This document shows positions 2,985 to 12,436 of a DNA stretch of 64,000 nt, one piece after another. The stretch lies in IMG/VR virus record IMGVR_UViG_3300042315_000201. One strand, given 5' to 3'. The notes under the pieces were generated by a model. The model saw only the letters and a program-made list of their open reading frames with translations, did no database searches and was not told where the DNA came from. Both the position numbers and the translations under genes were made by a program. Each line of letters opens with the position of its first letter. Position 1 is the first letter of the stretch. Source of the DNA: a virus.

Positions 2985-3391
2985 GAACAAACGTTTTAGA
3001 AACAGTAAAAGTAAATAGCACGGCTATTAATGAAGTAAAGTATGATGTTGAAAACGAAGCTTTACAAGTAGAGTTCGTTAACAAAAGTAAGTATATCTAT
3101 AAAGAAGTGCCTAAGCATGTATTCAATGGTATTGCAGATTCAGATTCAAAAGGTAAGTTTATCAATCAATACATCATTGGCAAATTCAAATACGAAGCTG
3201 TTCCAGCAGCGCCATTAATCCAACATGGGAACGGTGCTATACACGTTACTCGCCTTGAAGTTATTAATCACGCTTCAAATAGCCATGCAATTGGTAGATT
3301 ATTAACATTGTATAAATCTATGGGCGACTTTAATGAAATTGAATTGGATTACCAAGATGGTGGTAAAACTCTTAAAATATTTCTATCTTAG
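2981..3391 (+). CDS. KTSC-domain protein with extra C-terminal domain
   Basis: N-terminal VNSTAINEVKYD..LQVEF..KYIYKEVP..F..I..SDSKGKFINQYI matches the KTSC pattern. Confidence 0.8.
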   Translation: MRTNVLETVKVNSTAINEVKYDVENEALQVEFVNKSKYIYKEVPKHVFNGIADSDSKGKFINQYIIGKFKYEAVPAAPLIQHGNGAIHVTRLEVINHASNSHAIGRLLTLYKSMGDFNEIELDYQDGGKTLKIFLS

Positions 3392-4156
3392 ATGAAGAGT
3401 TATAATATACAAAACTATATCCGCTATAAGGAAGATATTAAACAAGCAATGAGTCGTATTGATGGTAAATTCTGGGACGAATATACTAGAGATGAATTGA
3501 TCATTAAGTTTCTTCCTTTAGTGGAAAATATAGCTAAAAAGTTTTCTACCACAACCCAGGCGTCTGGTGTATTAGATATTACAGATCTTATTCAAGCAGG
3601 TTCAAAAGGCTTAATAATGGCTATTGACAAAATTGAGTGGACAACAATAACTGATTCAGATGATCCAGAAAAAACTATTAAGTCATTTCTATCAAAAAGA
3701 ATTAAGGGCTCAATTAGAAGAGATATGGATATATATCGTGGCAGCATAAAACTTCCAGAACATAAGTTAATTGAAATGAGAAAAGACAATGGCCAAAATC
3801 AAGATATGGTTGCAATGTTTTTCAATTCAATATTCTTAAGTCTAGATGAGCAAATGGAAGATGATAATGACGATAATATGTTATACCAAATTCCAGACAA
3901 ATCTGAAGGCTATAATATAGATCTTATGAATATCTATTTAACTGGATTGCTTAAGAAACATTTAGACCATCGTGAGTTTGAAGTTTTAAGATTAAGTTAT
4001 GGATTAGACTGTGATAAACATTCTGCAATTACTATTGCTGAACTGTTAAATATTGAAGGTAACAGCGCTTATGTTAGAGTTTCAGAATTAAAAAAGCAAG
4101 CAATTAAGAAATTAGTTGACAACGTTGATCCCTCTCAAGTCCTTGATTACCTATAG
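3392..4156 (+). CDS. phage-encoded sigma70-family sigma factor
   Basis: Region 2 (LIIKFLPLVENIAKKF...DLIQAGSKGLIMAIDK...RIKGSIRR), SLD motif, and region 4 (LDHREFEVLRLSYGL..IAELLNI..VRVSELKKQAIKKL). Confidence 0.88.
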   Translation: MKSYNIQNYIRYKEDIKQAMSRIDGKFWDEYTRDELIIKFLPLVENIAKKFSTTTQASGVLDITDLIQAGSKGLIMAIDKIEWTTITDSDDPEKTIKSFLSKRIKGSIRRDMDIYRGSIKLPEHKLIEMRKDNGQNQDMVAMFFNSIFLSLDEQMEDDNDDNMLYQIPDKSEGYNIDLMNIYLTGLLKKHLDHREFEVLRLSYGLDCDKHSAITIAELLNIEGNSAYVRVSELKKQAIKKLVDNVDPSQVLDYL

Positions 4157-5767: not shown

Positions 5768-6088
5768 ATGGCATCAATTATTAAATGTTCAATCAATTTA
5801 AACGAAATCCCTAAGCACAAAATTATTGACGGTAAGAAAGGAAAGTATTTACCAATCACAATTACAATCAACGATGAGGTTGATCAGTTTGGTAATCAAG
5901 GACCAGTAATGGTTGAACAATCAAAAGAAGAACGTGAAGCGAAAGCCGCTAAAGTTTATCTTGGAAATGTTAAAGTAGTATGGACTAATGGAACTAACGT
6001 TCCTGCGGCGCCAAGACAAGATGGTAGTGGACAACAACCACAACAAGTTAAACAACCAGCAATGGTTGAGGACGATTTACCGTTCTAG
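5768..6088 (+). CDS. ssb: single-stranded DNA-binding protein (phage type)
   Basis: Predicted beta-rich core (GKKGKYLPITI..DQFGN..YLGNVKV), Gln/Gly-rich linker and acidic tail EDDLPF. Confidence 0.75.
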   Translation: MASIIKCSINLNEIPKHKIIDGKKGKYLPITITINDEVDQFGNQGPVMVEQSKEEREAKAAKVYLGNVKVVWTNGTNVPAAPRQDGSGQQPQQVKQPAMVEDDLPF

Positions 6089-6090
6089 AA

Positions 6091-6612
6091 TATACCAATG
6101 CTAACTGTTAGGCTCGACATCTTAGAAAAAAGGTTCACAGTAAGGTCGGCAAACCAGGAACCTTGATCTTATTAATGAAAAGCAATGCAGATTTAAAACT
6201 CTAATGAGCCTTACAATCTAATTAATAAGAAAGACACAGGTTGGTATAATGTACCTATAGCGCTTCCCGTAAGATCAGCCTTTAGGTCTTTTTTAGGTAT
6301 AGGCGCACTAACTTCCTTTTTCAATAGAACGCAATCATTATCTTGTACAAGCTCCGTAACTGATAACTCGGTAAGCTACAGGATATACAAGTGGCGTTAG
6401 GCGGGACCAACTCCGGAGAGGTTAAGTAACATCGCCTTTTATATGGTGTAGCGGTTTTTGAACCATTACCTCATAACACACTTAACAAAGGTTATTTGTA
6501 TTGACACGCACGGCAGCCGAAATTATACTAGTCCTAACTAGGCAATGCGAATAATGAAGACCAGATACCTCACGGTGCGTAGGTAAATTTCAAAGCTGGT
6601 TAATAACCTTTT
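6091..6612 (+). ncRNA. large structured non-coding RNA candidate, family unassigned
   Basis: No ORF of 60 aa or more; perfect helices 6091-6098/6241-6248, 6130-6136/6158-6164, 6167-6176/6221-6230, 6342-6347/6386-6391 and 6487-6496/6602-6611, plus possible pseudoknot 6110-6115/6206-6211; followed by a terminator. Confidence 0.7.
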
Positions 6613-6622
6613 TTAGTTAGTT

Positions 6623-6645
6623 AAACCCCATTTATTGGGGTTTTT
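6623..6645 (+). terminator. rho-independent terminator
   Basis: AAACCCCA-tttat-TGGGGTTT followed by a T run. Confidence 0.75.
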
Positions 6646-6680
6646 CTATCTATAATTAGTAACAACAAATAAAACAATAA

Positions 6681-8390
6681 ATGCAAACAATAGAGATAAA
6701 TGGTTTCTTGATTGACCAATTCAATCAATACAAACTTGAAGAGGGTAAGAGTCAAGGAACATGCCCTCTATGTTCTACCGATAGAAAAGCCAAGAATGAA
6801 AAAGCCAAATGCGCTATGTATGATTGGGATAGAGGTATTGGAACTTGTATGAATTGTAGTAAGACTTTTCAATTGCACACCTACAAACGTAAAGGTGCGT
6901 CTGAAAAAGTTTATGTTAGACCTGCAGAACAAGTTAATGTAACTCCTCCAAGTACTAAGATTGTAGAATGGTTTAAAGACAGAGCAATATCAGAACAAAC
7001 ATTAAACGATTTAGGCGTTACTGAAGGTCTTGAGTTTATGCCTCAAACTGGTAAAAGCGAAAATGCTATACACTTTAATTATTTCATCGGCGATCAACTT
7101 ATAAATATAAAATACAGAGATGGTAGAAAGAACTTTAAGTTGTATAAAGGCGCTGAGAAAGTTTTTTACAATATTAATAGCATTGTGGGTTTTGAGTATT
7201 GTATCATCGTGGAGGGCGAAATGGATGTCCTTGCCTTGCATGAGTCCGGGATCACTAATGCAATATCTGTACCAAATGGGGCAACGCTTAATACAAACAA
7301 TTTAGAATACCTGGATAATTGCATCGACTATTTTGAAGACAAACAAAAAATAATAATAGCAGTTGATTCAGATGCTGCCGGGCAAGCCCTGCAGTCTGAG
7401 TTAGTTAGGAGATTAGGATCAGAAACTTGTTATATTGCAACTTTCGATGATTGTAAGGATGCAAATGAATATTTAATTAAATACGGTAAGGAAGCTTTAT
7501 CTAATAGAATTAGCAGAGCTAAACCTGTGCCATTAGAAAATGTAACAACCTTTAGAGACATAGAAGATGAAGTCACGGATTTTGTACGCAATGGGTTTAA
7601 ACCTGGATTCCAGGTTGGCCTTGAGAATTTCGATAGTATTTTCTCTACTTATACGGGTCAGTTCATCACTGTTACTGGTATACCTAGTTCTGGAAAGTCT
7701 GACTTTGTTGACCAAATGGTTATAGGTTACAATGCTAACTATGGTTGGAAAACTGCTTATGCTTCTCCTGAGAATCACCCTACTTATTTGCATGCTCATA
7801 AGTTAATGAGAAAAACTTGGCAAGGTATGCCCGGCGTTGAAGATATTAAATCAGAGAAGTGGAATCAAGTAGCGGACCATGTTAATGATAATTATTTCTT
7901 TATTGACATGGAACGTTATACTTTAGAATCGGTACTGCGTAAAGGTGCTGAGCTAGTTAAACGTAAAGGAATTAAATGCTTAGTTATTGATCCATTCAAT
8001 AAGGTAAGATCCGCGGATGCTTCTGGCGATGTAAATGTATACACGTTAGAATACTTAAGTCAGATTGAAATCTTTGCTAAAAAGTATGATGTATTAGTTA
8101 TGGTTGTAGCGCATCCAACTAAAATGTATAAAGACAGTAGTGGCAAGATTGAAGAGCCTACTATGTACAACATTAAAGGTGGTGGTGAATGGTACGATGC
8201 ATCATATCATGGATTATTAGTTCATAGAAACTACGAAGACAAAACTGTTAAAGTAAAAGTTCTTAAATGTAAATTTCAAAACCTAGGTGAGAATGGTGCT
8301 GAATGTCATTTCAAGTGGGAACCAGCTTCAGGTTGTTTCTTACCACACGTTCCAGCAGTAAGTTCAGACGATAAGATGCCTTGGGACTAA
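6681..8390 (+). CDS. T7 gp4/Twinkle-like primase-helicase
   Basis: Zinc-binding CPLC...CMNC, TOPRIM IIVEGEMD and AVDSDAAG, Walker A GIPSSGKS, Walker B VIDPFN. Confidence 0.93.
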   Translation: MQTIEINGFLIDQFNQYKLEEGKSQGTCPLCSTDRKAKNEKAKCAMYDWDRGIGTCMNCSKTFQLHTYKRKGASEKVYVRPAEQVNVTPPSTKIVEWFKDRAISEQTLNDLGVTEGLEFMPQTGKSENAIHFNYFIGDQLINIKYRDGRKNFKLYKGAEKVFYNINSIVGFEYCIIVEGEMDVLALHESGITNAISVPNGATLNTNNLEYLDNCIDYFEDKQKIIIAVDSDAAGQALQSELVRRLGSETCYIATFDDCKDANEYLIKYGKEALSNRISRAKPVPLENVTTFRDIEDEVTDFVRNGFKPGFQVGLENFDSIFSTYTGQFITVTGIPSSGKSDFVDQMVIGYNANYGWKTAYASPENHPTYLHAHKLMRKTWQGMPGVEDIKSEKWNQVADHVNDNYFFIDMERYTLESVLRKGAELVKRKGIKCLVIDPFNKVRSADASGDVNVYTLEYLSQIEIFAKKYDVLVMVVAHPTKMYKDSSGKIEEPTMYNIKGGGEWYDASYHGLLVHRNYEDKTVKVKVLKCKFQNLGENGAECHFKWEPASGCFLPHVPAVSSDDKMPWD

Positions 8391-11467: not shown

Positions 11468-12436
11468 ATGGGATTATTTGATAAGAGATTAGAATACAAA
11501 CCATTTGAATATCCCGACTACTACACGGAAGGTTGGCTCAAACAAGCACAAGCTTTTTGGTTGCATACTGAAATAAGTATGTCAGGAGATTTAAAAGATT
11601 GGAATGAACAATTAAATGAAAAAGAAAAGAACCTGGTAGGAAATATTCTACTGGGTTTTGCTCAAACAGAATGCGCAGTTTCAGATTATTGGACACAGAA
11701 AGTTGTTAGTTGGTTTCCTAAACACGAGATACAACAAATGGCTATGATGTTTGGATCACAAGAAACTATTCACGCTGTTGCTTATAGCTACTTAAATGAA
11801 ACACTTGGACTTGAAGATTACAAAGCTTTTTTACACGAACCCGCAACGGCTGAAAGGTTTAACAACTTGGTTGGATATGAAGGTAACTCTCACACTGGGA
11901 TTGCTAAGTCTCTTGCTGTGTTTAGCGCTTTTGCTGAAGGGGTTAGTCTTTATTCTGCATTTGCTGTATTGTATTCTTTTCAGATGAGGAATCTATTGAA
12001 AGGTATTGGGCAACAAATGAAGTGGAGTGTGCGTGACGAATCATTACACAGTAAGATGGGTTGTAAGCTATTCCGCGATATGTGCAGAGAAAACACGCAA
12101 TTATTACACTTATGTAAAAAAGATATAATAGATGCTGCTAATACAATGATAGAATTAGAAGTTGCTTATATTGATAAGATGTTTGAGATGGGTGATATTG
12201 AAGGTATTAAAGCGGTAGACTTAAAACACTTCATTAAGAAGCGTACAAACGAGAAGTTGATGGAGCTTGGTTATGTTGAACTAAAAGATCATTTTGCTTA
12301 CGACAAAGATGCTGCAGCAAATTTAGATTGGTTTTACCATTTAACTGGCGGGCATACGCACACAGATTTCTTTGCAATAAGATCTACGGATTATAGTAAA
12401 GCAGGCGAAGGGGAAGATTATGAAAATATATGGTAA
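11468..12436 (+). CDS. nrdB: ribonucleotide reductase class I beta subunit
   Basis: FWLHTEI, FAQTE, QETIHAVAYS, FAEGV.LYSAF, RDESLH and FF..R.TDY di-metal/tyrosyl motifs. Confidence 0.96.
   Translation: MGLFDKRLEYKPFEYPDYYTEGWLKQAQAFWLHTEISMSGDLKDWNEQLNEKEKNLVGNILLGFAQTECAVSDYWTQKVVSWFPKHEIQQMAMMFGSQETIHAVAYSYLNETLGLEDYKAFLHEPATAERFNNLVGYEGNSHTGIAKSLAVFSAFAEGVSLYSAFAVLYSFQMRNLLKGIGQQMKWSVRDESLHSKMGCKLFRDMCRENTQLLHLCKKDIIDAANTMIELEVAYIDKMFEMGDIEGIKAVDLKHFIKKRTNEKLMELGYVELKDHFAYDKDAAANLDWFYHLTGGHTHTDFFAIRSTDYSKAGEGEDYENIW

Follow-up and report, generated by a model that had tools for sequence, protein, structure and literature searches.

The stretch of viral DNA analysed here (64,000 nucleotides (nt), IMG/VR record IMGVR_UViG_3300042315_000201; "the window" in what follows) contains a 592-nt gap at positions 6089-6680. 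It extends from the stop codon (6086-6088) of a gene whose product resembles single-stranded DNA-binding proteins (SSB-like) to the ATG (6681) of a primase-helicase gene. The original prediction, made from the letters of the window alone, placed here one large structured RNA of about 520 nt. That the gap has no real open reading frame (ORF) proved correct, as only short ORFs touch it: one of 38 amino acids (aa) on the + strand (5988-6104), which intrudes 16 nt from the side of the ssb-like gene, and two on the minus strand (37 and 44 aa, both with TTG starts). The ORF list has no + strand ORF of at least 30 aa wholly within the gap. A protein-coding gene or pseudogene was considered and rejected, since the relatives differ by indels of 1-2 nt and by paired substitutions. 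Starting from the SSB-like gene, the gap is made up of the modules M1, M2, M2b, M3, M4, M5 and the terminator M6, in this order. By comparison with relatives M1, M2 and M4 are predicted RNA motifs that are supported by covariation, absent from Rfam 15 and shared among lake-water Flavobacterium-type phages.

Folded as a single sequence the gap is unremarkable. The z-score of its minimum free energy (MFE) is -1.74 for the + and -1.63 for the minus strand, which is not beyond chance, and the reality of the structure was therefore judged by comparison with relatives. There are 287 relatives of the primase-helicase in IMG/VR, from which we fetched 80 loci (75-96% amino-acid identity; loci and contigs carry numbers with the prefix L below). 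The 78 of them that hold both genes were used to compare the length of the junction between the SSB-like and primase genes, which ranges from 4 to 775 nt and in many cases is just 4-20 nt. In an all-against-all BLAST of the gaps, the window shared only patches with other loci, each patch with a different subset of them. A junction so variable and patches that are separate from each other mean that there is no single conserved RNA of ca. 520 nt, and this part of the original prediction has to be given up; the part that stands is the presence, on the + strand, of structured RNA elements absent from Rfam. Modules are found singly, in different orders and among unrelated genes, and no helix joining two modules is conserved among the relatives.

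A search of the window with cmscan against Rfam 15 at gathering thresholds gave no match to any family, GOLLD and ROOL included. At E <= 10 the gap gave only noise (E ~4, unrelated small RNAs), and weak minus-strand matches to GibS/FopS (E ~4) were rejected. The same noise was all that a consensus-like M4 copy and the M1 copies returned from Rfam, at gathering thresholds and at E <= 10. By blastn against 50,697 phage records neither the gap nor M4 had any match, and M1 had one only in the phage immuto.

Motifs supported by covariation

M4 (6388-6485, + strand; 81.7 bits and E 7.5e-18 with model R1) is a three-way-junction motif of ~95 nt, with the helices P0 (6390-6393/6478-6481) and P1 (6399-6404/6432-6437), a variable hairpin P2 (6442-6475) and an inner hairpin of 3 bp, P1a. 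Retrieval with a pattern built on the conserved core of M4, in which CU..AG was fixed in the loop, gave 38 distinct copies, found in 11 IMG/VR contigs, 33 metagenome contigs of the Joint Genome Institute (JGI) and one contig of an uncultured Flavobacteriaceae metagenome-assembled genome (MAG). RNAalifold run on 33 distinct copies (alignment A2) predicted 20 pairs, 15 of which show compensatory changes. In this alignment 96.4% of the cells are paired, vs 80.1% after shuffling (a value as high as the real one was reached in 0 of 500 shuffles) and 32-51% when the 3' partners are slid. At one position of P1, 17 copies have A-U and 13 have G-U, and such G-U pairs fit a structure on the + strand only.

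The P1a loop has 8 nt and reads A-CUCGAG-A in 19 copies, A-CUGCAG-A in 17 and CUCCGGAG in the window, while two copies are non-palindromic. A self-complementary loop, CUCGAG or CUGCAG in 36 of 39 copies and CUCCGGAG in the window, is thus kept via paired substitutions, and no further loop type came up when IMG/VR was scanned with the loop unconstrained. Since single P1 subtypes include copies with either palindrome, the two central bases have switched together more than once. We infer that the loop may be under selection for self-complementarity, as would befit a kissing-loop homodimer.

The usual place of M4 is directly after the stop codon of the SSB-like gene (sometimes 7 nt from it) and before a terminator, which across loci has three different sequences. 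L088 has it between terS and terL, followed by a different terminator of its own, and L020 has the third terminator sequence. In L114 M4 fills the gap between a transfer RNA (tRNA) gene for lysine, tRNA-Lys (11692-11762), and a second tRNA (from 11857), and in L128 it comes after a longer protein that, like the SSB-like one of the window, ends in DDLPF. No terminator follows M4 in L114, in L096 (tRNA-flanked) or in L128. Most loci have M4 without M1, M2 or M5. As a separate matter, the second tRNA of L114 (11857-11935) has a 4-nt anticodon (aaag) according to ARAGORN and scores 44.6 bits with the Rfam tRNA model; it is an unusual or degenerate phage tRNA.

The pseudoknotted small-RNA motif M1 occupies 6092-6248 on the + strand (model R2, 127.6 bits, E 3.5e-23) and varies from 92 to 157 nt among its copies. 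Its parts are an invariant closing helix ACCAA/UUGGU, a covarying hairpin (6130-6136/6158-6164), a pseudoknot in which 6109-6115 (after GUUAGG) pairs with the hairpin loop 6144-6149, and a site for an optional hairpin. Across copies the pseudoknot takes forms such as GCUGAU/AUCAGC, GGUACG/CGUACC and GCUAA/UUAGC. In alignment A3, with 11 distinct copies, 91.8% of the cells are paired, vs 85.5% when shuffled and 22-50% when slid, and four pseudoknot pairs have changed on both sides. At the optional site the window has a hairpin of its own (6165-6232, + strand; inverted repeat I5, with a 10-bp stem 6167-6176/6221-6230), nothing similar to which was found in the fetched loci; the other copies carry a different hairpin there or none.

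Searching with a pattern from the 5' part of M1 gave nine IMG/VR contigs, seven of them new and with unrelated neighbours. M1 is present without M4 in seven other phage contigs and in immuto, and four phage records of 54-160 kb have one copy of it each. The match in the cultured Flavobacterium phage vB_FspM_immuto, found by blastn, ends a few nt before an annotated tRNA-Cys. In five contexts (immuto, L131, L134, L132 and L129) M1 is on the same strand as genes for tRNA or transfer-messenger RNA (tmRNA), which it abuts in immuto, while the distance is a few hundred nt to ~1 kb in three of the others and ~2.6 kb in L132. The tmRNA of L129, a 110-kb IMG/VR phage contig, is at 3102-3518 on the minus strand, ~940 nt downstream of M1 and on the same strand as M1, and ARAGORN gives its tag as GGTEVKSDVIFGELVEAA. 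Directly after M1, L129/L133 and L130 share 150-250 nt that contain UAAACAUUGA, CUUUGUAA and UUACAUAAAGAUAC, in that order, together with hairpins, which suggests more unnamed RNA modules. In the immuto record a hypothetical ORF of 33 aa on the minus strand, immuto26A_31, overlaps M1 (L136 2518-2619, that is MW353175.1 20131-20232); this ORF is probably a mis-annotation.

M2 (6251-6294, + strand; found by pattern match, alignment A6) is a terminator-like hairpin followed by a U-run. Its apical sequence of 18 nt, GCUU(A/C)CCGUAAGA(U/A)CAGC, is invariant, and its stem of ~11 bp, with a one-base bulge, covaries: the 27 copies of A6 have 91.2% of cells paired, vs 82.4% shuffled and 18-47% slid. 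In IMG/VR 46 stretches match the pattern, on contigs of 4-299 kb (among the carriers are L143, L149, L153, L160, L171, L179 and L182), and M2 is always just 3' of a stop codon, at 3-25 nt, after genes such as those for major head, tail tube, endolysin and endonuclease VII. Its predicted fold is worth -8.7 kcal/mol, with U6, in the window and -16 to -19 kcal/mol in other phages. M2 looks like a shared terminator cassette whose loop would be read by some factor. A TATAAT before M2 was considered as a -10 box and rejected, the other copies having ACAACT, GTGATT or TAAACG at this place.

The helices of M1, M2 and M4 thus keep pairing in relatives through compensatory changes. The helices that had been listed from the single sequence are indeed present (6091/6241, 6167/6221 and 6487/6602 were returned by a repeat finder and the others can be read in the sequence), and comparison sorts them. 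Those at 6130/6158 (M1) and 6399/6433 (M4) covary, the one at 6091/6241 is kept in relatives and invariant, 6487/6602 is invariant across four near-identical copies, and 6167/6221 belongs to the hairpin found in this window only. The pseudoknot that had been proposed at 6110/6206 does not hold, because its 3' partner sits in that window-only hairpin (6165-6232); the partner of its 5' segment in relatives is the loop of the hairpin 6130/6158.

Remaining modules and gene neighbourhood

M5 (6484-6611, + strand) is a module of 128 nt closed by the inverted repeat 6487-6496/6602-6611. Besides the window it was found only in L005/L090, L097/L122 and L121, at 94-97% identity and always between M4 and the terminator at this junction. 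The three other lineages carry quite different M4 copies. Where the M5 copies differ, it is mostly at positions predicted to be unpaired or in loops; no compensatory change, and hence no covariation, is among the differences, and the MFE z-score of the fold is -1.37. A loop pairing, 6509-6514/6576-6581, is also predicted within M5. An IMG/VR scan for M5 returned one contig only, which was already known. A 13-codon ORF (ATG..TAA, 6546-6587) lies within M5, with few substitutions among the four copies, and it may be translated. M5 of the window also has a sigma-70-like TTGACA-17-TATACT, rejected as a promoter because the -35 element is ATGACA in the other copies. Bacteroidota promoters differ from the sigma-70-like TTGACA/TATACT type.

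The terminator M6 (6611-6655, + strand; terminator scan and inverted repeat I1) has extended A/U-rich arms, and its stem (6623-6643) is made of 8 pairs, four of them G-C, and is followed by a U-run, as expected from the original prediction, in which the structured region ended at an intrinsic terminator. Many relatives have it at 79-100% identity (mostly at least 86%), with a compensatory variant AGACCCC/GGGGUCU. From its sequence M6 is predicted to be a strong intrinsic terminator.

Two smaller elements lie between M2 and M4. The conserved spacer M2b (6296-6336, + strand) is 92-100% identical in L001, L006, L099, L104 and L118. The hairpin M3 (6342-6391, + strand), recognised from the sequences of relatives, has a conserved loop (A)ACUGAUAA(C). 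M3 sits at the optional-hairpin site within M1 in most other phages, while here and in L118 it precedes M4. It is 100% identical in L118 and 97-100% identical over 41 nt within the M1 of L001 and L015, and compensatory changes, given here without a formal count, can be read in the sequences of L098 and L131.

The junction holds other things in relatives. A further closed module, AAAGCAG .. GGACAGCUUUA, with short and long forms, precedes M4 in L004, L005, L007, L015, L095, L098, L099, L101, L104, L105, L109, L117 and L121, but not in the window. Many relatives (L004, L005, L008, L017, L023, L094 and others) have, in the space from the terminator to the primase gene, an operator-like inverted repeat, CTTACAATC-N8-GATTGTAAG, followed by TTGATAATATATATGTAAC; a piece of this operator-like module is found in the window at 6196-6216, inside the window-only hairpin of M1. 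In L026, L032, L033, L035, L039-L042, L050, L053, L057-L060 and L064-L066, all of them more distant relatives, the junction is occupied by tiny CxxC..CxxC (zinc-ribbon-like) ORFs instead of RNA modules.

The gene upstream of the gap (5768-6088, + strand, in the ORF list) encodes a protein of 106 aa that matches phrog_24909 (function unknown) and has no Pfam domain match. Its C-terminal DDLPF we take to be akin to the acidic tip that SSB proteins have. Its AlphaFold model is of low quality (predicted local distance difference test, pLDDT, of 59.6) and its Atlas neighbours are uninformative, and for all these reasons we call its identity as an SSB no more than plausible. The primase-helicase gene (6681-8390, + strand) has Toprim and DnaB_C domains by Pfam, and the nearest cultured relative of its product is in Cellulophaga phage phi10:1 (44% identity), followed by those of Flavobacterium phages. 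By Pfam and context the neighbourhood includes ERF, a PD-(D/E)xK nuclease, the SSB-like protein and the primase. Farther away, at 3392-4156, a protein of 254 aa without Pfam match is similar to PHROG 351 (RNA polymerase sigma factor, E 1.6e-18). ARAGORN found no tRNA or tmRNA gene over the window, in agreement with the earlier remark that no tRNA was visible, and the Rfam tRNA model had no match there. A dispersed repeat of the type of miniature inverted-repeat transposable elements was rejected: a BLAST comparison of the gap with the whole 64 kb of the window showed no second copy, and R1 and R2 have one match each in it.

Transcripts, habitat and comparison with known RNAs

Contigs covering M1-M5 were found in four freshwater metatranscriptome assemblies, with a word depth of 9-125 vs 2-4 for contigs of the flanking genes. 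Single contigs of 283-367 nt span M2b-M3-M4-M5 or M2-M4-M5, and their joints reproduce the module insertions and deletions of relatives; some of the metatranscriptome contigs join position 6166 straight to 6341. Lake-water DNA runs hold 93-96% of the stretch. The M4-bearing Flavobacteriaceae MAG contig also encodes a phage-like chaperonin, and the M4 and M1 models found nothing in 150 other sampled Flavobacteriaceae genomes, under strict filters that do not amount to proof of absence. With M1 in a Flavobacterium phage, M4 on a contig that encodes a phage-like chaperonin and these 150 genomes without a match, both motifs appear to be phage-borne.

Among the structured RNAs of phages, GOLLD and ROOL, large non-coding RNAs of phages and prophages that are frequently located near tRNA islands, are of unknown function and a recognised open problem, and small relatives of theirs have hardly been catalogued. 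The variable region of GOLLD can hold tRNAs, and the multimers of GOLLD and ROOL are built by intermolecular kissing loops (bioRxiv 10.1101/2024.12.08.627333). The present modules are similar to them in being phage-encoded, highly structured, of unknown function and, in relatives, linked to tRNAs (M1 and M4 lie in tRNA arrays there), and the self-complementary loop of M4 recalls the multimers. However, GOLLD and ROOL are five to eight times the size of M1 (92-157 nt) and M4 (~95 nt), no Rfam model matches the two motifs, and the gap is a chain of independent units without one conserved architecture of >500 nt, in a window without tRNAs.

Phage T4 makes two small stable RNAs that are not tRNAs, species 1 and 2 (rnaC/rnaD), which are co-transcribed with tRNAs and freed by tRNA-processing enzymes and whose function is unknown. 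They differ from our modules in sequence and in host phylum, and the modules of the window follow a protein gene, not tRNAs. The put RNA of HK022 and the EAR of Bacillus are cis-acting RNAs of processive antitermination; like the modules they are compact, structured and located in operons upstream of intrinsic terminators that are read through, but there is no model match, and M4 is also found without a terminator and between tRNAs. The dimerisation initiation site of human immunodeficiency virus type 1 (HIV-1) has a short stem and a loop with a 6-nt palindrome flanked by purines, with alternative palindromes in different lineages. The M4 loops A-CUGCAG-A and A-CUCGAG-A are much like it, although the biological setting is another and dimerisation of M4 is only inferred. 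Small RNAs such as CpxQ and SroC derive from 3' untranslated regions and share the terminator of the mRNA; they are short, depend on Hfq and pair through a seed. The position right after a stop codon and the end at the operon terminator are the same here, whereas M1 and M4 have compact pseudoknot or junction folds with conserved unpaired nucleotides. Finally, the PeSL cassettes of T4-type phages are short promoter/stem-loop hairpins at gene boundaries, in plastic regions of diverged phages. M2 and M6 behave in a similar way, as shared boundary cassettes, with the difference that M2 has an invariant apical sequence of 18 nt and a terminator position after genes, and no promoter element was identified in it.

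Explanations for the gap and their meaning

We believe that the gap is probably not one RNA but an array, on the sense strand, of small structured RNAs and terminator cassettes that are separate from each other and can be exchanged independently. The array would be transcribed from the operon promoter through the SSB-like gene, and each module, closed by its own helix, would be cut out or would persist as a small stable RNA. Copies of M1 and M4 between tRNA genes would be freed by the cuts of RNase P and RNase Z, and elsewhere the terminator would set the 3' end. M2 and M6, as terminators, would let less transcription reach the primase gene. Two copies of M4 probably pair with each other via the palindromic loop, and our best guess is that M1 and M4 could be stable RNAs of the tRNA-island type that bind a host or phage factor during infection. 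A more specific version, which we regard as rather doubtful, takes M1, M4 and perhaps M5 as a hitherto unrecognised group of exchangeable RNA cassettes of Flavobacteriia phages with tRNA-like processing, moved between tRNA islands and gene ends, with M4 as a symmetric kissing-loop homodimer, a miniature RNA-only assembly, acting in trans on a host target. The roles that could be imagined for M4 in this case, a decoy for tRNA-directed defence nucleases or a ribosome-binding RNA, would be just as tentative.

Several points weigh against an array of separate RNAs. The constant order and strand of the modules would also fit one transcript with optional domains, and most M4 loci share one synteny, after the SSB-like gene, so that many of the contexts are not independent. 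The RNA evidence consists of assembled contigs, which show neither strand nor ends, do not allow genes to be ranked by depth and may stem in part from DNA carry-over, and a discrete small RNA has so far not been observed. The structure of M5 is a predicted fold only and no role is assigned to M2b. The count of palindromes in the M4 loop is partly biased, because the retrieval pattern fixed CU..AG.

The competing explanations keep the same modules and put them to other uses. In one of them, which we find distinctly unlikely, the whole of 6089-6650 would be one large modular non-coding RNA with M4 as its core and the other modules as optional peripheral domains, as in the variable 5' half of GOLLD. 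The modules do have the same order and strand with one terminator at the end, the metatranscriptome contigs of 283-367 nt cross several of them, M5 was found only directly after M4, in three M4 subtypes, and tRNAs can be held in the variable region of GOLLD (bioRxiv 10.1101/2024.12.08.627333). However, M1 occurs without M4, M4 without M1, M2 or M5, and M2 alone after unrelated genes. One RNA would also have to do without a conserved inter-module helix, with a whole-region z-score of -1.74 and with a U-run hairpin, M2, in the middle of the array. The idea that M4, with M1 or M5, is a cis-acting leader which modulates terminator read-through before the primase, as an attenuator that senses a ligand or a protein or as a put/EAR-like antiterminator, is unlikely too. 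It would account for the terminator, of three sequences, within a few nt of M4 and before a gene that needs to be expressed (the primase, or terL in L088). In the window there are ~30 nt from the U-run to the primase ATG, in which no promoter hexamers were read; this leaves no room for a promoter of its own, and the primase needs read-through. Yet the copies of L114, L096 and L128 have no terminator after M4, and in four lineages the 128 nt of M5 part M4 from it, which breaks any direct coupling of an aptamer to its platform. Moreover, such a mechanism has no use for the self-complementary loop that M4 conserves, and no riboswitch or antiterminator family of Rfam matches; on all these grounds we rejected a riboswitch or transcription attenuator.

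The last alternative is a feature of the DNA itself, i.e., a replication origin, hairpins for single-strand initiation or the debris of recombination, with hairpins that act as DNA or have no function. The location among genes of recombination and replication (ERF, PD-(D/E)xK nuclease, SSB-like, primase), a junction that is a hot-spot of insertion and deletion among relatives, and loop palindromes of M4 that are also 6-bp DNA palindromes would all be in its favour. We nevertheless consider it highly improbable, given that the helices are maintained by compensatory changes, that the frequent G-U pairs of the + strand would be A-C mismatches on the other, that neither iterons nor repeated copies were found, and that RNA libraries hold the modules. 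M1, M2 and M4 also occur far from replication genes, in tRNA arrays and in the orientation of the tRNAs. The tie to replication that had been suggested from the position of the gap is likewise unsupported, since elsewhere these three modules adjoin tRNA, capsid, tail, lysis and terminase genes.

An array of exchangeable small RNAs makes the locus less striking than a single new giant RNA would be. In the light of the comparisons made here, its modules are candidate new motif families that resemble the RNAs of phage tRNA islands and are members of no tested Rfam family; membership in the known families is denied because all the model tests failed. M1 can be taken to the bench with a cultured pair, Flavobacterium phage immuto on Flavobacterium sp. 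LMO8, and the dimerisation proposed for the self-complementary loop of M4 could be tested with simple compensatory mutants. The invariant loop of M2, which contigs of 4-299 kb share downstream of their most strongly expressed genes, suggests that some factor recognises it. The locus also corrects a probable mis-annotation, the 33-aa ORF over M1 in the immuto record. Beyond these cases, it shows that non-coding RNA modules of phages are shuffled between phages much like protein-coding accessory genes.

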